Made by a program: the position numbers and the translations under genes | From: an uncultured Gammaproteobacteria bacterium | Lineage (GTDB): Bacteria; Patescibacteriota; Patescibacteriia; Veblenbacterales; UBA10138 | Direction: 5' to 3' | Assembly: GCA_964453605.1 (NCBI GenBank) | Contig: CAYVOI010000001.1 | Coordinates: forward strand, 102,276-166,275 | Length of the DNA: 64,000 nt | In this document: positions 5,413 through 59,482 of the stretch, piece after piece | Layout of the letters: each line of letters opens with the position of its first letter | How positions within the stretch are numbered: position 1 is the first letter of the stretch | Notes under the pieces: generated by a model | Databases searched by the model: none | The model's input: the letters and a program-made list of their open reading frames with translations, nothing else | What the model was told of the DNA's origin: nothing

Positions 5413-5940
5413 ATGGCTGAGCAGGTACAAGCAGACACAACTGAAGACCTGGTTGAGCAAGCGCCGGCAGAGAGCGTTGAGCAACGTAATGAGCGTGAGC
5501 TCACGGAAACCCGCGCTAAGGCCAGCGTATTAGAGCGCGCACTTAAACTTGAGACAACGGGCGTCGACTCGCTCGACCAAGCAGCTAATAAAACTTCGCA
5601 GCAGTGGCTTGATGACACCAAGCTGGCGCTGCTGCCGCTGTTCTACCTCTACCTGCCGCTCTTGGCCATTTTTGTGATAGTCGTGATTGAGCTCATGCTA
5701 CCACTGTGGCGCAGCTCGTGGACTCTCCCTCTCTGGCGCAAGGTGGTGTACTGGGTCTACATTGTACTGTTTGTATTCCTGACCATAACAATCCTCGGGG
5801 CCCTGGCCTACCTCTACAAGCACCCCGACAAGTTTTGCACCTTGGTGTTGGACGGTACGTGGTGGGGGGCCGTGCCTGGGGTTAAGCAGGCCGGGTGCAG
5901 TGTTTTTGGTTGGTTGTTCAATTTGTTCAAGCCCGGCTAG
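5413..5940 (+). CDS. membrane protein: acidic N-terminal region plus three or four TM helices
   Basis: Acidic or coiled N-terminus, then LALLPLFYLYLPLLAIFVIVVIELMLPLW and VVYWVYIVLFVFLTITILGALAYLY. No known motif. Confidence 0.45.
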   Translation: MAEQVQADTTEDLVEQAPAESVEQRNERELTETRAKASVLERALKLETTGVDSLDQAANKTSQQWLDDTKLALLPLFYLYLPLLAIFVIVVIELMLPLWRSSWTLPLWRKVVYWVYIVLFVFLTITILGALAYLYKHPDKFCTLVLDGTWWGAVPGVKQAGCSVFGWLFNLFKPG

Positions 5941-8579: not shown

Positions 8580-9227
8580 ATGGTGACTACCAGCTCTATG
8601 CTCCGCGTAATGCTGCTCGGTGTTGCGGTGGTGCTAGTGGTGGCGGTGTGGCAGCTCCGCCGAGAGAGTGCTCGCCTGAGCTACCAGCCAGCGCCGAGCG
8701 AGCAGGCTCAGCCCACCAAGCTGCCATCGCAAGTTACCGTTCTGCCGGCTGACCCGGTGCGGGGGGCGGCCACTGCACCACAAACGGTAGTGCTGTTTAG
8801 CGATTTCCAGTGTCCCTACTGTGCTGAGGTGGCACCCATCCTGGCTCAGGCCGTGGCCCAGAACGGTGGCAGGTGGAAGCTGGTGTGGAAAGACTTTCCT
8901 CTGCCCTCACACCCCGAGGCTCTGGCGGCGGCGGAGGCGGCCCAGTGCGCTGGTAGCCAAGGTCGGTTTTGGGAATACCACGACCAGCTGTTCCAGCGGC
9001 AAGCTACGCTCGGGCCCCAGCTCTACCAAGCTCTGGCGCTTGAGTTGAACCTCAGCCCCGAGCCATTCCAGCGCTGTCTGGCGCAGCACACCTTTAAGCC
9101 GTTCATTGAACACAGCCTGGCTGAGGGCGCAGCTATTGGCGTTGATGCCACTCCTTTTTTGGTGGTAGGTAGCAAGGTCTACCGTGGTACGTTTACGGCC
9201 GAGGAGCTAGCCCAGTTTTTGGAGTAA
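8580..9227 (+). CDS. DsbA-family thiol:disulfide oxidoreductase (thioredoxin fold, CPYC active site), membrane-anchored
   Basis: TM anchor MLLGVAVVLVVAVW. Active-site block VVLFSDFQCPYCAEVAP. C-terminal ATPFLVVGSKVYRGTFTAEELAQFL, typical of DsbA/DsbG-like proteins. Confidence 0.7.
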   Translation: MVTTSSMLRVMLLGVAVVLVVAVWQLRRESARLSYQPAPSEQAQPTKLPSQVTVLPADPVRGAATAPQTVVLFSDFQCPYCAEVAPILAQAVAQNGGRWKLVWKDFPLPSHPEALAAAEAAQCAGSQGRFWEYHDQLFQRQATLGPQLYQALALELNLSPEPFQRCLAQHTFKPFIEHSLAEGAAIGVDATPFLVVGSKVYRGTFTAEELAQFLE

Positions 9228-9246
9228 GCAGGGAGTTTATTGACCT

Positions 9247-10431
9247 ATGCAGGCTAACGTAAAGTTACTGGTTGCTCGCAGCGTCCTCTGTGTAGCCGCA
9301 CTGGGGTGGAGCGTGGCACCGTTGCTCCCGGTGTGGGCGGCTGTGCCCTGTTCACCTAAAGACGTGTGGCAGGTAAACGATTGTACGGGGATTACGTGCT
9401 GTGATGTCGGCTACGTTTGCCGAGCGCAGGATTATAAAAACGGCCGGGAGGGGACATTGTCGCAGCATATCTGTGAAGTGGCCCCACCAGCGGAACAAGA
9501 AGGTAGCAGCTCGGCCACTACCCCCCTGGAGTTCCAGCCCCAGGTAACCATCCCCGGTACCATTACCGTGGGGGGGCAGCAGGTTTCGTTCCGGCAAGGG
9601 CAGGGACTTGCCGTGACGGGTGATACCATTGCGCAGTACCTCGGGGTGTTCTATAAGTTTTTCATAGCCATGCTGGCCGTGGCCGCAGTTGTTATGGTGA
9701 TGTGGGGCGGGTTCAAGCGCATTATGGCGGTAGGTTCCCCGGAGAAGATTGCTGACGCTAACGATGCTATTGTCAGTGCCCTTACTGGTTTAGTGCTGGT
9801 GCTTATTTCCTATTCGCTCCTCAACCTCATTAACCCTAAGCTGACGAGCTTTAAAACCTTAGCCCTGACACCGGTGACGAGGATAGAGTTTGAAGATGTA
9901 GAGGCAGAGCAGATTGTAGCAGCGGCCACCCAGCCTAGCAGCGTGCCGCAGGTGGCTATTATCAGCGGCGCTAACATCAGCAACCCGGGTAACAAAATAG
10001 CCACCCTCCCGCTCATTACTGCCCTACAAGCTGCCGCGGCTGAGTTAGCTAAGCAGAACGTGTATGTGATTGTGACCTCTGGTACCAGAACAGTCGCCGA
10101 GCAAACCGCGCTCATCTTGAAGAACTGTATAAATCCACCAGGGTCTACTAGCTGCCATCCTAAACCCGGCGGGGTGGAGACGTGTCCACTGCCGGGGAAC
10201 AACCCCTTAAGCTGTCCCCACACCTCGGGCCAAGCGGTGGACGTGTGGGCGGCGCAGGGCAACAGCACGCCGATTTCGCAAAAGGCCTGCCAGGCTAATA
10301 AGCCCGCCTGCGAGCAAGACCCGGCCATGGCCGCACTCATTGCGGCTATGCGAGCACAGGGGTTTTGTAAGCTCGACAGCGAACCCTGGCACTTTGAACA
10401 GCCAGTGGTGTCGGCTGGCCGTTGTCACTAA
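9247..10431 (+). CDS. secreted cysteine-rich VirB2/TrbC-like hairpin protein fused to a C-terminal LAS/peptidase M15 (VanY-like zinc D,D- or L,D-peptidase) domain (paralog 2)
   Basis: Signal peptide. Module YKFFIAMLAVAAVVMVMWGGFKRIMAVGSPEKIADANDAIVSALTGLVLVLISYSLLNLINPKL. All three M15 signature blocks are present: SGTRTVAEQ (SGxRxxxxQ), HTSGQAVD (HxxxxxxD zinc ligands) and EPWHFE (EPWHF). Confidence 0.6.
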   Translation: MQANVKLLVARSVLCVAALGWSVAPLLPVWAAVPCSPKDVWQVNDCTGITCCDVGYVCRAQDYKNGREGTLSQHICEVAPPAEQEGSSSATTPLEFQPQVTIPGTITVGGQQVSFRQGQGLAVTGDTIAQYLGVFYKFFIAMLAVAAVVMVMWGGFKRIMAVGSPEKIADANDAIVSALTGLVLVLISYSLLNLINPKLTSFKTLALTPVTRIEFEDVEAEQIVAAATQPSSVPQVAIISGANISNPGNKIATLPLITALQAAAAELAKQNVYVIVTSGTRTVAEQTALILKNCINPPGSTSCHPKPGGVETCPLPGNNPLSCPHTSGQAVDVWAAQGNSTPISQKACQANKPACEQDPAMAALIAAMRAQGFCKLDSEPWHFEQPVVSAGRCH

Positions 10432-13093: not shown

Positions 13094-15199
13094 TTACTCA
13101 GGGTGAAAGGCGAGCTTAGCTATGCGGTTTTTAAGTTCTGGCCAGGGTTTTAGAGTTGAGTCCTGTTTGAGCACCAGATCAGTAGCCTGCTGGACTGTCT
13201 TCAGTAACCCCTGGTCAGCCAGTGAGGCAAAACGTAGGCTGCTCCAGCCAGACTGTAGTTCTCCCACAATATCACCCGGGCCCCGCTGTTTCAGGTCAAA
13301 TTCCGCTAGGTCAAAGCCACTATGGTGCCTTACCAAGGCATCAAGGCGTGCCAAGCTCTTCGGGTCGGTGGATTCGGTGAGGAGTAGGCAGTAGCTCTGC
13401 AGGTTTGACCTGCCCACGCGACCACGGAACTGGTGCAGCTGCGCCAGGCCAAAACGCTCGGCGCTCTCAATGGCTATAACCGTGGCTTGGGGAACATCTA
13501 CTCCAACCTCGATAACAGACGTGGTGACAAGTATGGGCGTATGTCCATCGACAAACTGTTTCATAGCGCTAGCTTTGGCGCGGGCAGGTAGTTTGCCGTG
13601 CAGCAGCCCTAAGGTAAGTTCAGGGAACACCTCGCGGCTTAGGCGTTCGTGCTCAAGTGTCACCGCGCGGACGCCTAAAACATCGGACTCCTCAATAGTT
13701 GGGCAGACAATGAACACGCGGTGGCCGCGTGCAACCTCTTGCCGCATGAAGTCGTACGCCCTAGTGCGCTCATTTGGTTGTACCATTCGGGTGGTAATGA
13801 GTTTCCGACCAGCCGGTAGGTGGTTTATGGTTGAAAGTTTGAGGTTACCATAGAGGGTAAGCGCCAGGGAACGGGGAATAGGAGTAGCCGAGAGGGAAAG
13901 GAAGTGGGGAATAGCGCGTTGGTCGCGGTGTAGCAGCTGGCGCTGCTCTACCCCAAAACGGTGCTGTTCGTCTACCACAATCAGCCCAAGCTGCTTGAAG
14001 CGGACCGACGCCTGCAGGACAGCGTGGGTGCCGATGAGTATATCAACTTGTCCTTGCTTGAGTTTGATTTTTAGTGACTTATCAGATACCACTACGCCCT
14101 GGTTCGCCACACACTGTTTGGAAGCCGTGAGGAGCCCTAAGGTAACGTGGGGCAGATTAGTAAACAGCCGGCTAAGGGTAGCAGCGTGCTGGTCAGCCAG
14201 AATCTCGGTGGGGGCAATAAGTACAACCTGCCAGCCAGCCGCTGCGGCGTTCAAGGCGGCTAACCCCGCCACAATAGTTTTGCCTGACCCTACATCGCCT
14301 TGGAGCAGCCGGTACATGGGCTCGGAGTTCCCTAGGTCTTTGATAATTTCCCAAGCCGCCACTCTCTGATCGTCAGTTAGCCGCCAGGGTAATGTATCCA
14401 CGAACTGTTTTAGGCCTGACCAGAGTAGAATGGCAGGTGCCTTAGTGCCTGCCGCAGGCAGGTGAGCCAGTTTTAGTTTCAGGCTCATCAGGAACAGCTC
14501 GTCAAAGCCTAGGCGGCGGCGAGCTGGAGCAATGTCGGGCCAACCTTTGGGTTGGTGCAGGTGCTCAAGGGCTGTGGGGAGGCTGGGGAGTTTTGTTTGT
14601 TGCAGGACTTCAGCTGGCAGGTAGTCGGTGACCTGCTCACAGAGCGGCAGGAGTCGGGAGATAGTGCTGCGCAGCTTGGTTTGGGTGAGCTGGGCAGTGG
14701 AGGGGTAAATAGGTACCAAGCGGCCGGTGTGCACACCACCGCGGGCGACCGGCTCCCAGGTCGGGTGTTCGAGTTGCAGCCCGTAGCTTGAGTCAGTGAG
14801 ATGGCCACTGAGGTACACTTCATCGCCCACTCGGAGGCTGTCTTTGAGGTAGGGCTGGTTAAACCACACGGCTTTGATAGTGCCCGTGCCATCGGTAAAA
14901 AGCACCTCGGTTACCTGAAGTTTGCGCCGAAAGCTCCGGCGTGAACTTACGAGCTGTACCTTGGCTCGGAGTGTGACCTGTTCACCTACCTTAAGGTTTT
15001 TGATGGCTACGGTTTTTGAGAAATCGTCGTACCGTGTGGGTACGTGGTGTAGCAGGTCTGCTATCGTGGCAAGCCCCAGGCGCTTGAGGCGCGCCGCGGT
15101 AGAAGGGCCAATACCGGGTACGTGGGTTACGGGACTCTGTGGGGAGAGCATAGTAATTGGTACTTCACCATTATGCCGCGCCTGGTAGCAAAAAACCAC
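13094..15199 (-). CDS. recG: ATP-dependent DNA helicase RecG
   Basis: Wedge/OB N-terminus. Helicase motif I LLQGDVGSGKT, motif II VVDEQHRFGV, and GTHAV. Confidence 0.9.
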   Translation of the reverse strand: MVFCYQARHNGEVPITMLSPQSPVTHVPGIGPSTAARLKRLGLATIADLLHHVPTRYDDFSKTVAIKNLKVGEQVTLRAKVQLVSSRRSFRRKLQVTEVLFTDGTGTIKAVWFNQPYLKDSLRVGDEVYLSGHLTDSSYGLQLEHPTWEPVARGGVHTGRLVPIYPSTAQLTQTKLRSTISRLLPLCEQVTDYLPAEVLQQTKLPSLPTALEHLHQPKGWPDIAPARRRLGFDELFLMSLKLKLAHLPAAGTKAPAILLWSGLKQFVDTLPWRLTDDQRVAAWEIIKDLGNSEPMYRLLQGDVGSGKTIVAGLAALNAAAAGWQVVLIAPTEILADQHAATLSRLFTNLPHVTLGLLTASKQCVANQGVVVSDKSLKIKLKQGQVDILIGTHAVLQASVRFKQLGLIVVDEQHRFGVEQRQLLHRDQRAIPHFLSLSATPIPRSLALTLYGNLKLSTINHLPAGRKLITTRMVQPNERTRAYDFMRQEVARGHRVFIVCPTIEESDVLGVRAVTLEHERLSREVFPELTLGLLHGKLPARAKASAMKQFVDGHTPILVTTSVIEVGVDVPQATVIAIESAERFGLAQLHQFRGRVGRSNLQSYCLLLTESTDPKSLARLDALVRHHSGFDLAEFDLKQRGPGDIVGELQSGWSSLRFASLADQGLLKTVQQATDLVLKQDSTLKPWPELKNRIAKLAFHPE

Positions 15200-15284
15200 C
15201 CCGTCCCGATAGGGGGTCAGGGGTTCTGGTGTAGTATTAATTAGTCCGAACGCATTTCGCCGTCGCAGGCGGCAAAGAGTTTCC

Positions 15285-15322
15285 CCCGCGAAAATTCGGA
15301 AAGGCGGCGGACCGCGCCGCTA
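15285..15322 (-). terminator. GC-rich hairpin plus T-run downstream of the low-GC islet gene (minus strand)
   Basis: Stem GCGGCG...CGCCGC, followed on the minus strand by TTTCCGAATTTT. Confidence 0.35.
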
Positions 15323-15363
15323 ACAATTTCAAGTTTTTCTTTGGTGGCATTAAATTATGAAAT

Positions 15364-16077
15364 TTATGTTAAATCAAAATCAATCAAAATCTTTTTTTCC
15401 ATATCATAAAATGAACGCGCAAAAAGATTATCCTGTTTGTTGGAAAAAGTTTTTTTGGCTAGTAAATCATTTCTATAAGTGTAAATTAGAGAACTTATCG
15501 GTGCACCGGGGTAGCAAATCAATCGCCAACCATTATCAGAAGCTAGGGTGTGTGGTAATGGTATTTCTTTTTGCGTAAGTAAATGAGTTACAACAATTTC
15601 TTCAATCAAAAAATTTATGTTAGTATCGGAGGTTTCTCTCCCCTGATTTTTAAGATCACTTTGCAAACACATATTAAAATGCTTATCATTTTTTGCCGCC
15701 CCAAGTAATTTATTTTTTCTTTCATGGAAGTTATCAGCGTTCAGAATTGCATAGTCCCAGGGCAAAAAGTGAAAAGCTTGTGGGACATATTTTCTTTCTT
15801 TGAGTAAGAGGTTCGTAAATTCTCCTTTATGGCCCAACATTTGATTCAAAGAGCGTTTGCGAATCTCGACTGCCCTGTCATCGCTATTCAAATAAAGATC
15901 GTTTGTATAAAGAAAAATACAGTCTATCGAAATATATTTCACTTTGCTCTCGAAAAATACCAAGAAATCATAAATATCCTGACCAGATTGAGAGTTGGCC
16001 AGTCTGCTCATAGAAAGTGGGAAAATCAAATAACCGTCTTTGGGAACACTAGAAATGTCAAAATTGTCCTTCTTCAT
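15364..16077 (-). CDS. hypothetical protein in a low-GC (about 33%) islet; motif pattern reminiscent of XYP-subfamily cyclodipeptide synthases (tentative)
   Basis: 237 aa and AT-rich, in strong contrast to the flanks. The ordered motifs are LIFPLSMSRLANSQS near the N-terminus (compare the CDPS G-I-S-x-x-N-S pocket), NFLIEEI at about residue 156-160 (compare Y-x-x-x-E), and RLICYPGAP at about 186-192 (compare LCYH in the NYH subfamily and YP in the XYP subfamily). Matching size and spacing cannot be confirmed without a search. Confidence 0.5.
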   Translation of the reverse strand: MKKDNFDISSVPKDGYLIFPLSMSRLANSQSGQDIYDFLVFFESKVKYISIDCIFLYTNDLYLNSDDRAVEIRKRSLNQMLGHKGEFTNLLLKERKYVPQAFHFLPWDYAILNADNFHERKNKLLGAAKNDKHFNMCLQSDLKNQGRETSDTNINFLIEEIVVTHLLTQKEIPLPHTLASDNGWRLICYPGAPISSLIYTYRNDLLAKKTFSNKQDNLFARSFYDMEKKILIDFDLT

Positions 16078-16125
16078 AATATGATTAAAAAATTTTCTGG
16101 CCCCAACTCTTTGAGTTTTCCTTTC

Positions 16126-16200
16126 TGGTGCCCTCGGTAGGAATCGAACCTACATTACAAGCTCCGCAAGCTCGCGTTCTATCCATTGAACTACGAGGGC
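16126..16200 (-). tRNA. tRNA-Arg (anticodon GCG)
   Basis: Reverse complement GCCCTCG-TA-GTTC-AATGGATA-GAAC-G-CGAGC-TTGCGGA-GCTTG-TAAT-GTAGG-TTCGATT-CCTAC-CGAGGGC-A-CCA. It is a clean cloverleaf with the CCA encoded. Anticodon loop TTGCGGA. Confidence 0.8.
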
Positions 16201-16256
16201 CTAAGGTATGAAACAGAGCTAAACCAGTATAGGGTAGCTTTTAGCCTGTGGCAAGG

Positions 16257-16766
16257 CTACTGTAGTTTCAAGAGCCTAGAGAGCGCCTCAGAAGTTGGCA
16301 TGTCTTCGCGTTCCAGGTCCTCAGCAATGTACTTCTTGAGCTGTGTGCGTACGGTAAGGGGACTTGTTTTACCTAAAGGCACTGTGAGTCGTGGGGTCAG
16401 AGCGTTCTTAGGTACCAGGTAAAGGCAGCTCACTTCTGGTGGGTGGTAGGCTATCCAGAAGTTGGCTAGTTCTGACCAGCGCCAGAACTTTTTCCCGACG
16501 GCTACGCCTAACGTGGTCAGCTGGAACTCGATGTGCCTGGGGTTACGGCGCGTCTCGTTCACAAAAATAATAGCCCCCATAAGCAGGATGAGCGCGAACA
16601 AGAAGTTGCCTGTGAATGCCGCCCAAGCTACCATGGCCAAGGTGACGAGCCCGGCCCACACCCACCACGAGGTTGGACGGTTGACATGGCGAAACTCGCG
16701 GAAGGTCCAGCGCAACGTTGCCTTGCCGATGTTGGCGTTTGGTTCTAGGTTCAGGTTTATGGCCAT
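16257..16766 (-). CDS. membrane protein (2 TM), hypothetical
   Basis: TSWWVWAGLVTLAMVAWAAFTGNFLFALILLMGAIIF. No catalytic motif. Confidence 0.45.
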   Translation of the reverse strand: MAINLNLEPNANIGKATLRWTFREFRHVNRPTSWWVWAGLVTLAMVAWAAFTGNFLFALILLMGAIIFVNETRRNPRHIEFQLTTLGVAVGKKFWRWSELANFWIAYHPPEVSCLYLVPKNALTPRLTVPLGKTSPLTVRTQLKKYIAEDLEREDMPTSEALSRLLKLQ

Positions 16767-16863: not shown

Positions 16864-17442
16864 ATGGAGATAACCACTTACCTCAGGGAGCTCCGCCGTA
16901 CCTACCAAGCCACTGCCCAAGCTCGGCGGAAGCTGGTGGACCTTTCGGCGCAAGCTCAGCACCTCAGCAAGCAAGCTATTTTTACTGCCCAGCGCGGTGA
17001 GCTTAAGCAGGCTCAGGAGTTGCTAGCGGCGGCCGTAGCGCTGCTCAAGCAAGGCCAAGCCCTTTGCCGCCAGGTCGGCGAACTTGAGTACTTAGGTAGC
17101 TACCGTGCTGCGCTTGAAGAGTTTGTGGAAGCAGATCTCTTTACCACCTACCTCAAGCGCGGGGGAGTGGGGCGTGTATCAAAAGTGAAGGTGGCACCGG
17201 AGGTGTACCTCGGTGGGTTGTCAGATATGCTCGGCGAACTGGTGCGCTACGCTGTAAAACTTGCTACTGAGGGCAAACCTACTGAGGTGGACAAGCTAGC
17301 TAAATTCGTAACGCAGGTGGTGGGGGAGCTGGCGGCTATGAACCTCACGGGCAGCCTGCGGAACAAGTTCGACCAGGCCAAGCAGCACCTGCGGCGGCTG
17401 GAGGACATCCGCTACGACTTGAGCATCCGTCGCCATGCCTAA
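16864..17442 (+). CDS. translin-family protein
   Basis: All-helical, 192 aa. The C-terminus SLRNKFDQAKQHLRRLEDIRYDLSIRR aligns with the translin C-terminal signature SLRKRYDGLKYDVKKVEEVVYDLSIRG. The upstream YLGGLSDMLGELVRYAV aligns with YLEGAIHAANELSRLAV. Confidence 0.6.
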   Translation: MEITTYLRELRRTYQATAQARRKLVDLSAQAQHLSKQAIFTAQRGELKQAQELLAAAVALLKQGQALCRQVGELEYLGSYRAALEEFVEADLFTTYLKRGGVGRVSKVKVAPEVYLGGLSDMLGELVRYAVKLATEGKPTEVDKLAKFVTQVVGELAAMNLTGSLRNKFDQAKQHLRRLEDIRYDLSIRRHA

Positions 17443-49230: not shown

Positions 49231-49315
49231 GGAGGGATCGCATAGTGGTCTAGTGCGCACGCTTGGAAAGCGTGTGTACCGAAAGGTACCGAGGGTTCGA
49301 ATCCCTCTCCCTCCG
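49231..49315 (+). tRNA. tRNA-Ser (anticodon GGA), type II
   Basis: GGAGGGA-TC-GCAT-AGTGGTCTA-GTGC-G-CACGC-TTGGAAA-GCGTG-TGTACCGAAAGGTACC-GAGGG-TTCGAAT-CCCTC-TCCCTCC-G. CCA is not encoded. A terminator-like hairpin CCCCAAAGT...ACTTTGGGG lies downstream. Confidence 0.8.
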
Positions 49316-49362
49316 CTCGAGAAGGGTTAGAATCTTTACCCCAAAGTGAGCTATGCTCTACT

Positions 49363-49917
49363 TTGGGGCCTTCCTCTCCGCCATCAGTCCTTATGCAAGG
49401 AAAATTAGAAGAGTACTCGTCAGAATGGTTGAAGAAATATGAGCTCGAGGCTAACAAGATACAAGCTAGTTTAGGTAGTGCTATAAAAGATATTCAGCAT
49501 ATTGGGAGTACATCTATTCCGGGCGCTATTGCTAAACCGTTAATAGACATTGGCGTGCTAGTTGATTCGATAGATGATATTGACCTGTTCGTAAATAAAC
49601 TAGAATCGCTCGGATATTCATATAAGCCAGACATGTCTTCGGTTGAGCGAATTTTCCTTCGAAAGGGTAAACCCGTTGAGTATCATTTATCCATCGCTTG
49701 TCCTAAGCATACATTTTGGAGGCGCCAAATTTCTTTTAGAGATTACCTAAGATTACGCCCGGAATTTGTTGAAGAATATAATAAGTTAAAGCTAAAAAAT
49801 TTTGATGCAACGTCGCCAGATGATTTTACAGATCTCTCAAAAAGTAAAACCTATAACCAAGGGAAGGGGGGATTCGTTGAGAAAATCTTAAAACTTGCCA
49901 AGGCAGATCGTATGTAA
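49363..49917 (+). CDS. GrpB-family (UPF0157, nucleotidyltransferase-like) protein in a low-GC islet
   Basis: IQHIGSTSIPGAIAKPLIDIGVLV matches the GrpB core (HIGSTS.PG..AKP.IDI). Lower GC than the flanks. Probable start at MQGKLEEY (about 49393). Confidence 0.65.
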   Translation: MGPSSPPSVLMQGKLEEYSSEWLKKYELEANKIQASLGSAIKDIQHIGSTSIPGAIAKPLIDIGVLVDSIDDIDLFVNKLESLGYSYKPDMSSVERIFLRKGKPVEYHLSIACPKHTFWRRQISFRDYLRLRPEFVEEYNKLKLKNFDATSPDDFTDLSKSKTYNQGKGGFVEKILKLAKADRM

Positions 49918-49972
49918 ACAAGGTCCGACTTGGCTTATCCGAGTTGTCTGAAGATGTATAGCAATAAACAAT

Positions 49973-50383
49973 ATGAAATTTTTTGAGAGAAACTTTTGGC
50001 GGGGAGAGGATGAAACCGGGGTAAGAGAATTACATCGGGATTTTAAAATTCACGACGGTTCTTGGTACCACAATCGTTATTACGACTCCTTTGTTGATAA
50101 AGGAACAGCCATGAAAATCAGGTTCTCTTTCGACGACCCGTCGCTTTTGGATAATTGCCCATTTATTGCAAAAATAGGATTGAACGGGGATTCTAATGTT
50201 GGTGGTAAGTACATAGGTTTTGCTTATGGCCGAAACACTGATCAAGAAGCATTAATGTTGTGGGCTCAAAAATTCAATTTTGCAGAGCTAATAGTCGGAC
50301 TCGATGAGAACGCTGTTTCGACTCCTGATAGTAAAGTAATTCCGATAAAACAAAAGAACGCTGAAGAAGGGAAACACCCATGA
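49973..50383 (+). CDS. hypothetical protein (low-GC islet, second gene)
   Basis: 136 aa and AT-rich. No motif. Confidence 0.4.
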   Translation: MKFFERNFWRGEDETGVRELHRDFKIHDGSWYHNRYYDSFVDKGTAMKIRFSFDDPSLLDNCPFIAKIGLNGDSNVGGKYIGFAYGRNTDQEALMLWAQKFNFAELIVGLDENAVSTPDSKVIPIKQKNAEEGKHP

Positions 50384-50400
50384 TCCATGATTAAAAGCCT

Positions 50401-52182
50401 ATGTCAAATGAAGTAGACCAAATTAAGGCCCGGCTCGACGTGGTGGATGTTATAGGTGAGTATGTGAAACTGAAGCAGGCCGGCGTTAACTGGAAGGGCA
50501 TGTGCCCGTTCCACCACGAAAAGAGCCCGAGCTTCATGGTGCACCGTGAAAAGCAGATTTGGCACTGCTTTGGCTGCGGCGAGGGTGGCGATGTGTTTTC
50601 ATTTGTGCAGAAAATTGAGCACATAGAATTTCCAGAAGCACTGGAACTGTTAGCGCGTAAGGCGCACGTGGAGTTGGTACGCTCCGGCCGACCAGGCGAG
50701 TCGAACCAGCGCATGAGGTTGTTCCAGCTCGTTGACCTTGCCCGTACTTTTTTCACTGAGCAGCTGCAAAAAAATCCCGTGGCCGCCAAAGCGCGAGACT
50801 ACCTTAAACAGCGCAGTGTAACAACCGAGAGTGTTGCCACCTTCAACATTGGTTACTCCTTGCCAGAGTGGGACAAGTTTATTGTGCTGGCGCGTTCAAA
50901 GGGTTACTCAGTGGAGGAGTTGGTGGCAGCGGGGCTTGCCATAAAGAGTGACCGGGGCCCAGGAGCCTATGACCGCTTCCGCGACCGGCTTATGTTCCCC
51001 ATTTCCGACGCTCAAGGACGAAGTTTAGGTTTTGGTGGGCGCACCTTAGACGCCGAAGCGAAGGAAGCCAAGTATATTAACTCACCCCAGAGCCCCATTT
51101 ACAACAAGAGCATGGTGGTCTACAACCTGGACCGCGCCAAGCAGTTTATAAAAGACGCTGGCCATGTTGTTTTGGTGGAAGGGTACATGGACGTAGTGGG
51201 GAGCTGGCAGGCGGGAGTAAAAAATGTGGTGGCCACCTCGGGCACCGCGCTCACCTTGGACCAGCTCAAACTGTTAAAGCGCTACACTAATGAGCTCCGG
51301 CTGGCGTTTGACGCAGACTTAGCTGGCCGCTCCGCTTCGGAGCGCGGCATAGACCTAGCACTCGGGCTGGAGTTTGAGGTTAAGGTTATAGTGCTGCCCT
51401 TTGGTAAAGACCCCGACGAGTGCGCGCGCCAAGACGCGGCTGCGTACCGTAAGGCAGTTGAGCAAGCACTCCCCTTGGGTGATTACGCGTTCCAAAGTGT
51501 CGCCCGCGAAGTTGACTTTGGCACGCGTGAGGGGAAAAAGGTAGCGGCGCGCAAGCTCCTTACTGCCATAGCGAAACTGCCTGACCCGGTAGAAAGGGAC
51601 TACTACGTTAAACGGTTAGCCCAAGAGCTCTCGGTAGACGAACGTTCTCTGCGCGAGCGCCTAGCAGGTGTGGCCACGGTTCCTGTACCTACACCAGAGG
51701 CACCGTCAAGCCAAACTGCTGCCCCAAGCCCAGACCGGCACCAGGTACTTTCGCACCGGCTGCTCTCGCTGCTGCTTCACTACCCAGCTTTTTTGGCTGA
51801 GCTCAGCCCGGAACTCTTGCCCGAAGCCCTCAGTGAGGGGCACCCGCGTAACCTTTACAAGCAAATGCTCGTCTATTATAATGAGAGCCATCGTGTTGAC
51901 TTCGATGAATTAAAGGCCGAGCTGAATACTGATCAGTCGTTAGCTCATTTCTTAGATCAGGTATTCCTCGATTTTGACCAGACAGGTAGCGACTTTACAC
52001 CCGACCAAGCCAAGGGTGAGCTTGCCAGTCTGGTGCACCAGCTTAAGCACCGCTTCCTCAGCCTAGAGCTGCAGCAGCTGAGCAGCTTAATTGTAGCCGC
52101 CGAGGCGGCCGGTAGGGCCGAGGAGCTTGCTGAACTACTCCAGCGGTTTACCGAGGTTGGCCGTGCACTTGCTCGCTTGTAA
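50401..52182 (+). CDS. dnaG: DNA primase
   Basis: CHC2 zinc finger [47 protein letters not shown]-terminal helicase-interaction domain. Confidence 0.9.
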
Positions 52183-58856: not shown

Positions 58857-59482
58857 AAAAAAATCCCCTCTGATGAAGGGGGTTTATTTACTGACGACAA
58901 CAGAAAACAACCCCACTTGGGCTATTCTCCGTTTGCGACCTCGGAAGGGCTAAGCTCGGCCCTCAGAAAGCAGACAACAGTTCACGTGCTGCCTTAATGC
59001 GACAAGATGTAGTGCCGGTCATTTCCCTCCGATGCCCACTGAGTGAACCAGTGACCATACCCACGGTATGGTATCCGCGCTAAAGAAGCGTGAACGTACC
59101 GGATAAGGCACTACTACCGCGTACGCGACAGGCCAGGTATGTAAGGGCCCGGCTCGCCGTACTGCATTATAGGGTTAATAAAGGAACTCTAGTGGTTGGA
59201 TTCGTTTACTAAACTTAGTCATACCACAGTTTCCGAAAGTACCCAAGGTAACCTTTATCCACACCTACCAAGATACCTATCAAGAAATAAATTGAGCTTG
59301 AATTTTGCTGTAACTTCTGGTAAAATTTTACATGCAAGTATACAAGTATAATAGCCTAAACCTAGGTAGCCCTAGGCATGGCTCAAAAACTCATGGTAGA
59401 TACTGAACCTCACGTTCAGCAGCTCTACCATGAGTCATGTCCCGAAAGGGGTATGGGCCGCAAGGCCAGCTGACGTGGGGTT

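Follow-up and report, generated by a model that had tools for sequence, protein, structure and literature searches.

Background

How did a lone AT-rich gene come to lie between a tRNA gene and recG in a reduced bacterial genome, and what kind of enzyme does it encode? The question is raised by a stretch of 64,000 nucleotides (hereafter the window) from an uncultured bacterium labelled as a member of the Gammaproteobacteria and placed by GTDB in the Patescibacteriota (Veblenbacterales, UBA10138; GenBank assembly GCA_964453605.1, contig CAYVOI010000001.1, positions 102,276 to 166,275). An intact open reading frame (ORF) at positions 15364-16077, on the minus strand of the window, encodes a protein of 237 amino acids. 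A sequence-only reading of the locus had tentatively taken this product for a tRNA-dependent cyclodipeptide synthase (CDPS) of the XYP type, encoded in a reduced genome and acquired at the 3' end of a tRNA-Arg gene, and had remarked that tRNAs supply such enzymes with substrate. The genome is indeed small, the same proteins being found on an NCBI contig of 876,493 bp. CDPSs are, to our knowledge, the only enzymes that divert aminoacyl-tRNAs into diketopiperazine natural products.

We argue here that the ORF is the single gene of a foreign insert of about 0.9 kb, and that its product belongs to an unannotated, deep-branching clade of the CDPS superfamily, being probably a tRNA-dependent enzyme of the CDPS type. 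Taken as a whole, we give this reading a probability of roughly 60%.

Results and discussion

A foreign single-gene segment between tRNA-Arg and recG

Base composition sets the ORF apart from its surroundings. The GC content falls from 0.55-0.58 to 0.34-0.38 across it; the segment 15335-16134, at 0.34 against a window mean of 0.537 (standard deviation 0.042, z = -4.6), is the lowest-GC 800-bp stretch of the whole window, and the GC content of third codon positions is 0.33 in the ORF compared with 0.52-0.68 in neighbouring genes. The ORF starts 48 bp beyond the encoded CCA of a tRNA-Arg(GCG) gene (16126-16200, minus strand; found by ARAGORN, and by Rfam at 69.6 bits). On its other side lies recG (13094-15199, minus strand), while a gene for a 169-amino-acid membrane-like protein (16257-16766, minus strand) precedes the tRNA gene.

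The ancestral arrangement can be read from 80 metagenome loci that encode relatives of the window's RecG (42-59% identity). A same-strand tRNA-Arg gene lies upstream of recG in 49 of the 80, carries the anticodon GCG in 46 of those 49 and ends within 150 bp of recG in 34 of them; a tblastn search detected no relative of the CDPS-like ORF in any of the 80. The closest relatives (L051-L054) have the 169-amino-acid protein (58-61% identical to that of the window), tRNA-Arg(GCG) and recG in this order, the last two separated by 61-116 bp; in the window, 974 bp separate tRNA-Arg from the same recG start. The tRNA-Arg genes of the window and its relatives are almost identical when aligned, and the spacer after the tRNA begins, in the relatives, with CACCAGACTGACC. 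Because these sites are empty in the relatives, the islet is an insertion of about 0.9 kb: a foreign, AT-rich, single-gene segment has been placed after the CCA of tRNA-Arg and splits the ancestral tRNA-Arg-recG order, leaving the tRNA gene, recG and the membrane-like protein gene as native flanks. The low-GC, single-gene islet and its acquisition next to a tRNA, both proposed from the letters of the sequence, are thus borne out by comparison.

An 8-nt direct repeat, CACCAGAA, marks the borders of the insert. Its proximal copy (16123-16130, minus strand), which comprises the discriminator base, CCA and then GAA, gives the left boundary. The distal copy (15224-15231, minus strand), followed by CCCCTGACC, gives the right boundary and resembles the ancestral spacer; spacer of the ancestral type resumes 899 bp downstream of the tRNA-end copy. 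A match of 8 nt was reached in 217 of 5000 shuffles (p about 0.04), and a repeat search found none longer than 8 nt, so the repeat is suggestive rather than proven as a trace of insertion. Thus delimited, the insert measures about 891 bp and comprises an AT-rich leader (16078-16122, minus strand; GC 0.31), the single ORF and a 3' tail of 132 nt (15232-15363, minus strand; GC 0.48) with a hairpin, GCGGCG-CGGUC-CGCCGC, that is a possible terminator. The GC-rich tail was also considered as a structured RNA, an idea abandoned when its fold proved no better than those of shuffled sequences (z = -0.4).

In several respects the insert resembles the genomic islands associated with tRNA genes: it starts at a tRNA 3' end, is of foreign composition, has an empty site in relatives and is bounded by a short direct repeat that takes in the tRNA 3' end. 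It differs from them in measuring only about 0.9 kb, in holding one gene and no integrase gene, and in a repeat of only 8 nt; moreover, the CDPS-like family adjoins many kinds of tRNA gene and therefore has no single att site. A classical att site was rejected, there being no long direct repeat and no integrase.

The native block shows some further regularities. The order membrane-like protein, tRNA-Arg(GCG), recG is kept in dozens of contigs (L051-L129), where a pair of tRNA-Ser genes (anticodons TGA and GCT) often precedes it. The gap between tRNA and recG exceeds 600 bp in nine loci (L055, L070, L079, L080, L081, L099, L112, L113 and L118), which may hold other inserted cargo. Within the window a second low-GC islet (49317-50400, GC about 0.38, the second-lowest stretch) lies directly 3' of tRNA-Ser(GGA) (49231-49316, plus strand) and before dnaG (50401-52182). 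It carries an ORF of the GrpB family (49363-49917; Pfam 128.7 bits, also phrog_24971) and an ORF of 136 amino acids (49973-50383) for which no matches were found, and has the same architecture as the CDPS-like insert, that of a small cargo after a tRNA gene.

A fold closest to that of cyclodipeptide synthases

Scanned as a single sequence, the window protein matched nothing in Pfam, NCBIfam, PADLOC (at E <= 10), PHROGs or the PDB sequences, and scans run member by member were equally empty; weak PDB profile matches, such as that to mistletoe lectin A chain (E about 0.4), were set aside as noise. The Pfam model PF16715 matched none of 47 family members. As a control, the same tool gave AlbC 233 bits, Fdum-CDPS 20.4 bits (cut-off 27) and Cglo-CDPS and CDPS32 nothing at all. 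PF16715 is biased towards the NYH subfamily, and since it misses validated XYP enzymes, the lack of a Pfam match in the family is uninformative; we no longer take it as evidence of novelty. When 5.8 billion proteins were searched with a profile of the broad family alignment, no Pfam-annotated CDPS emerged and only a few distant members were gained.

Structure proved more telling. An AlphaFold2 model of the window protein, built from a 47-sequence alignment, has a mean predicted local distance difference test score of 92.8 and a predicted template-modelling score of 0.90. Foldseek returned 43 PDB hits at E <= 1e-3; every one is a CDPS chain, and their TM-scores range from 0.45 to 0.56. In a viral structure library the sole significant matches were two viral CDPSs, followed by a megavirus TyrRS. 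The predicted structure has the Rossmann-like fold of class-Ic aminoacyl-tRNA synthetases (aaRSs) and is closest to the solved CDPSs. A structure search had been named as the check on the CDPS assignment, and in three libraries it ranked CDPSs first and class-Ic aaRSs second. From TyrRS and TrpRS, which it matches less well, the window protein also differs in its size of about 237 amino acids and in the absence of an anticodon-binding domain and of the HIGH and KMSKS motifs. CDPSs likewise do without HIGH and KMSKS, and no nucleotide-binding signature is present in the sequence of the window protein either.

An active site in register with the XYP enzymes

For residue-level comparison, AlbC was checked against structure 3OQV, and the other reference CDPSs were taken from PDB alignments and Supplementary Data Set 1 of Gondry et al. 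2018 (PMC5816076). Profile-profile alignment with hhalign, using 61 family sequences and 8 or 16 XYP sequences and covering about 165 columns, related the family to XYP with a probability of 96.6-97.0% (E = 6e-10 to 8e-11). A control alignment of XYP with NYH gave 97.8-98.5% (E = 7e-13 to 2e-15), and the family aligned with NYH at 43% (E = 2.5e-4).

Five blocks fall into register with Cglo-CDPS (AlbC numbering for the latter): LIFPLS22M with IVIGIS37M, FLYT58NDLY62 with VVIT67DGLH, W107 with W119, NF156LIE159E160 with KY178LLEE182, and ICY189P190G191 with MTY202P203G204. The three motifs that the sequence-only reading had quoted, LSMSRLANSQS (residues 21-31), NFLIEEI (155-161) and RLICYPGAP (185-193), are present as described. 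They are the most conserved blocks of the family, and hhalign sets them upon the Ser loop, the Y/F-x-x-E-E helix and the Y-P-G loop of XYP enzymes. Read from the sequence of the window, the corresponding codons lie at 16012-16014 (Ser22), 15610-15612 (Phe156), 15601-15603 (Glu159), 15598-15600 (Glu160), 15511-15513 (Tyr189), 15508-15510 (Pro190) and 15505-15507 (Gly191).

Across the 61 family sequences, which reach down to 20% identity, S22 (equivalent to S37) is kept in 57, E160 (E182) in 58, the preceding E159 in 60, as in the XYP motif YxxEE, and Y189 (Y202) in 59; P190 (P203) and G191 (G204) are kept in 51 and 48, respectively. The catalytic Ser and Glu, on which the earlier assignment had been made to depend, thus have nearly invariant equivalents. 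The conserved catalytic residues of CDPSs are S37, Y178, E182 and Y202, and the XYP subfamily is defined by X40, Y202 and P203 (PMC11580168). Position 40 is occupied by Arg25 (Arg or Lys in 49/61), a non-Asn residue as in XYP enzymes. Judged by alignment, the family has the XYP signature and three of the four catalytic residues, Tyr178 being the one that it lacks.

Other features of the protein can be read against this framework. In the model and the alignment, a long helix formed by residues 69-94, a candidate counterpart of the basic helix alpha4 with which CDPSs bind the tRNA acceptor arm, bears R73 (Arg or Lys in 52/61), K74, R75, K84 and K94; just beyond its end come R96 and K97. Among close family members the positions that correspond to the AlbC pocket (I/V18, P20, L56, T58, W107, V/I163, T/S164 and I/V/L187) are kept, which suggests that these members share a specificity. 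The family also has invariant residues of its own, Y57, Y62, H83 and Y224, which are not CDPS hallmarks.

A clade outside the two known subfamilies

Left-out XYP clades, scored one at a time against a hidden Markov model (HMM) of the remaining XYP sequences, each obtained 57-206 bits. NYH enzymes reached a median of 25-35 bits (maximum 40) and the CDPS-like family a median of only 8-11 bits (maximum 33). The family thus stands further from XYP than NYH does, despite its XYP-like active-site signature, and by these scores it is best described as a separate, deeper clade of the CDPS superfamily, nearest to XYP but outside both XYP and NYH. The assignment to the XYP type was therefore right in part: homology to CDPSs and the signature of X40, Tyr202 and Pro203 stand, whereas XYP membership does not, the scores falling below those of NYH and Tyr178 being Phe.

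The resemblance to XYP enzymes (Cglo-CDPS, 6Y4B; Fdum-CDPS, 5OCD; Nbra-CDPS, 5MLQ; Rgry-CDPS, 5MLP; CDPS31) extends to the Ser loop (PLS22M here, GIS37M in Cglo-CDPS), the F/Y-x-x-E-E helix (NFLIEE here, KYLLEE in Cglo-CDPS), the Y-P-G loop, a non-Asn residue at position 40, a Pro35 as in Fdum-CDPS, a Phe178 as in CDPS31, similar size, and carriers that are likewise often host-dependent or intracellular. However, Phe178 is the rule in this family and the exception in XYP, the XYP block D-x-x-x-R-H-N after strand beta4 has become (N/D)-x-L-Y-x-N, and the four extra residues are invariant in this family only. With respect to NYH enzymes (AlbC, Rv2275, YvmC), the window protein has Arg25 for Asn40 and Pro190 for His203. 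A putative CDPS of Porphyromonas gingivalis (PDB 9GUN, released 2026), on which a literature search found no paper, is also distinct: its identity to the window protein is 10%, and the family profile misses it at E <= 10.

A review of January 2026 still divides CDPSs into NYH and XYP only (PMC12945691). The motifs of the family occur in no sequence of the portion considered here of the 2017 census alignment, and a full-text literature search found no description of such a family in organisms of the candidate phyla radiation (CPR) or DPANN, though papers outside that search may hold one.

A mobile family of ultra-small and host-dependent microbes

The window protein has 111 homologues of 230-260 amino acids, all without an annotated domain, and is 85% identical to the nearest. 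At 50% identity the family comprises 148 cluster representatives, and wherever a source names its members, the name given is 'hypothetical protein'. A family member is encoded at 47 loci of GTDB species genomes: 22 in Archaea, mostly DPANN (Woese-, Pace-, Nano- and Aenigmarchaeota), 14 in CPR bacteria, eight in other bacteria (Legionellales, Coxiellaceae, Gammaproteobacteria, Bdellovibrionales and others) and three in unclassified bacteria. A neighbour-joining tree shows bacterial sequences interspersed among archaeal ones, the nearest neighbour belonging to the other domain in eight of the 47 cases, and the window protein groups with copies from Moraniibacteriota and Sungiibacteriota. At almost every locus the family gene has a lower GC content than its flanks; the difference reaches 5 points or more at 22 of the 47 independent loci. 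Taken together, tree and composition point to horizontal movement of the family between ultra-small and host-dependent microbes, bacterial as well as archaeal.

Some carriers bear unexpected labels (Gammaproteobacteria, Verrucomicrobiota, Vicingus, Methanosarcinales and Euryarchaeota metagenome-assembled genomes; loci L013, L022, L025, L026, L029, L038 and L039), and several of their copies form tight clusters in the tree with those of DPANN or CPR organisms. Either very recent transfer or mis-binned contigs could account for them.

The family gene has no conserved protein-coding neighbour, the largest neighbour cluster occurring in five of 48 loci. In 11 of 48 loci a tRNA gene is found no more than 250 bp away, and tRNA density is 0.51 per kb near the family gene against 0.052 per kb in the far flanks, an enrichment of about tenfold (binomial P = 1e-7 to 2e-4, depending on the tRNA density assumed). 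Arg-GCG appears four times among these neighbours, followed by Phe, Gly, His, Ile, Leu, Ala and Met. So many kinds of tRNA argue for an insertion-site preference rather than a link to substrate. We accordingly reject the notion that the tRNA-Arg of the window supplies the substrate of the adjoining gene, as the family adjoins at least eight tRNA species.

In a Moraniibacteriota sequence (L002, CP064989, 7501-10431) the family gene stands inside a tRNA array, in the order Leu-Val-Phe, family gene, Met-Gly; at L003 (3901-4992) a gap of 1 bp separates the corresponding tRNA-Phe and tRNA-Gly, in what looks like an empty site of that array. At L017 a tRNA called as Ile, with the anticodon TAT, lies at 5846-5918, 82 bp upstream of the family gene. 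TAT is an unusual anticodon for tRNA-Ile.

A few members come with additional domains. In P0177 (L130, 1477-2697) and P0201 (L131, 2160-3449) the CDPS-like domain is fused at its C-terminal side with a SET domain (PF00856; E = 1e-10 and 1e-9), and the GC content of both fusion genes equals that of their surroundings. At L002 a SET-domain gene (9095-9619) follows the family gene and its tRNA array, and beyond it lie a NUDIX gene and, at 10213-10431, a second SET fragment. The three family-linked SET domains are 33-42% identical among themselves. A link to NUDIX, suggested by L002 and L131, was dismissed as coincidence, the two NUDIX proteins being unrelated. P0163 (525 amino acids) has an N-terminal extension of about 290 amino acids with a weak winged-helix match. 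C-terminal extensions occur in P0223, P0246 and P0248, with a hydrophobic, transmembrane-like segment in the latter two.

Weighing the assignment and its alternatives

Several observations weigh against reading the family as CDPSs. Identity to known CDPSs is only 8-16%, and the window protein scores 11.6 bits against the full XYP HMM (-2.7 bits against that of NYH). Gly35 is replaced by Pro20, kept in 51 of 61 sequences. Position 178 is Phe156 in 56 of the 61 and Tyr in one. The hydroxyl of Tyr178 serves to position the aminoacyl group; in AlbC it has been described as essential (PMC3105412), and the Y178F variant has little activity and yields less acyl-enzyme (PMC3105412; PMC5935735). Two XYP enzymes, CDPS32 with Phe178 and CDPS34 with Cys178, were inactive in E. 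coli. However, Fdum-CDPS, an XYP enzyme that is active, has Pro at position 35 as well (MPIS motif). CDPS31 of Rickettsiella grylli, whose sequence reads RQF178LIEEC at this point and whose pocket residues match the published ILVAWVFI/SEYRGVT, makes cyclo(Ala-Gly) and cyclo(Ala-Ala). An XYP-type site can therefore be active with Phe178, and the presence of this residue in the family weakens the case for CDPS membership without overturning it.

The same substitution invites the reading that the protein keeps the CDPS fold and the dependence on aminoacyl-tRNA and carries out another chemistry, for instance transfer of an aminoacyl or dipeptidyl group onto some other acceptor (protein lysine, peptide or small molecule) or release of a linear dipeptide, with a SET methyltransferase as partner in some lineages. 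Phe in place of Tyr178 throughout, a position outside both known subfamilies, the extra invariant Y57, Y62, H83 and Y224, and two independent SET fusions plus one adjacent SET gene would all suit such an enzyme. Set against this, the family retains every one of the residues (Ser, Glu and Tyr-Pro-Gly) that serve to form cyclodipeptides, Phe178 has a precedent in an active XYP CDPS, the SET link is confined to three of about 150 clusters and one of 49 loci, and there is no conserved partner gene. We consider a changed chemistry unlikely, while taking it seriously.

The remaining explanations find little support in these data. The sequence-only reading had named an abortive-infection or other defence protein as its alternative. 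A solitary, low-GC gene moving horizontally beside tRNA genes might be a toxin carried as a small mobile islet and consuming or deacylating aminoacyl-tRNAs, and a Ser-acyl-enzyme could simply hydrolyse. PADLOC and PHROGs gave no match, though, no relatives were found in IMG/VR contigs that might indicate a viral origin, neither an antitoxin nor any other conserved partner adjoins the gene, and the cyclisation residue Tyr189 is conserved together with the pocket; such a role seems to us very improbable. Even less can be said for an inactive passenger, that is, a decaying or non-catalytic remnant such as a tRNA-binding protein without enzymatic role. One canonical catalytic Tyr is missing and some natural XYP homologues are inactive in E. 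coli, yet the ORF is intact and closely matched by its nearest homologue, and the Ser, Glu-Glu and Tyr-Pro-Gly are near-invariant across two domains of life even among distant members, which implies purifying selection on the active site. It is equally hard to believe in a Rossmann-like nucleotide-binding enzyme of the HUP class that is unrelated to aminoacyl-tRNA and shares with CDPSs the fold alone, for CDPSs outrank all other folds in the three libraries, profile-profile homology brings CDPS-specific catalytic residues into register, and both HIGH/KMSKS and a nucleotide-binding signature are missing.

Proposed mechanism and significance

If the family consists of CDPS-type enzymes, as we favour, its members would depend on tRNA and follow a ping-pong chemistry towards a cyclic product. 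The acceptor arm of an aminoacyl-tRNA would bind to the basic helix (residues 69-97), and the aminoacyl group would be moved to Ser22, Glu160 positioning the alpha-amino group of the substrate. A second aminoacyl-tRNA would then give a dipeptidyl-enzyme, from which cyclisation assisted by Tyr189 would release the cyclodipeptide. Because the carriers have host-dependent lifestyles, the enzyme probably plays a role in interaction with host or partner cells.

Such an assignment would add a third, deeper CDPS lineage with Phe178, widen the sequence space open to genome mining and provide a natural test of the part played by Tyr178. Surveys of CDPSs based on Pfam evidently undercount them, as PF16715 misses much of the XYP subfamily. 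The intermixed bacterial and archaeal tree points to cross-domain exchange among ultra-small, host-dependent microbes of very little biosynthetic capacity, and the retention of an enzyme of secondary-metabolite type in such genomes itself suggests a role in partner interaction. The tenfold enrichment beside tRNA genes, along with the insertion at this locus, shows how tiny genomes gain single-gene cargo.

A more adventurous proposal, which we regard as speculative and improbable, is that this third lineage has moved past canonical cyclodipeptide synthesis. The family would then be an aminoacyl-tRNA-dependent transferase, spread as a mobile single-gene cassette beside the tRNA genes of episymbiotic or host-dependent bacteria and archaea and acting in symbiont-host interaction, possibly on the aminoacyl-tRNAs of the partner. 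Some lineages would pair it with a SET-domain lysine methyltransferase, the outcome being either the modification of a product that contains Lys or the aminoacylation of a protein.

Expression and neighbouring genes in the window

The sole good minus-strand promoter candidate upstream of the CDPS-like ORF is a site at 16226-16254 (minus strand), upstream of tRNA-Arg, which agrees with the consensus at 10 of 12 positions and whose function as a promoter is presumed from that match. Its position makes co-transcription with the tRNA plausible, and we infer that the ORF is expressed by read-through from the tRNA promoter.

The genes on one side of the islet encode RecG, a 132-amino-acid protein of unknown function, a DNA glycosylase and RadA; those on the other encode the small membrane protein, a Translin-family protein, riboflavin kinase, FolD and serine hydroxymethyltransferase. 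As had been remarked from the sequence, no tailoring enzyme is found among them. The Translin-family protein (PF01997, 80.5 bits; 192 amino acids) is encoded at 16864-17442 on the plus strand, a short way upstream of the tRNA-Arg locus. As Translin occurs mainly in eukaryotes and archaea, it would be unusual in a small bacterial genome. Further along the window, at 59353-59467 on the plus strand, lies a full-length match to the Rfam LOOT RNA (RF03000), with 88.2 bits against a gathering score of 46.4.

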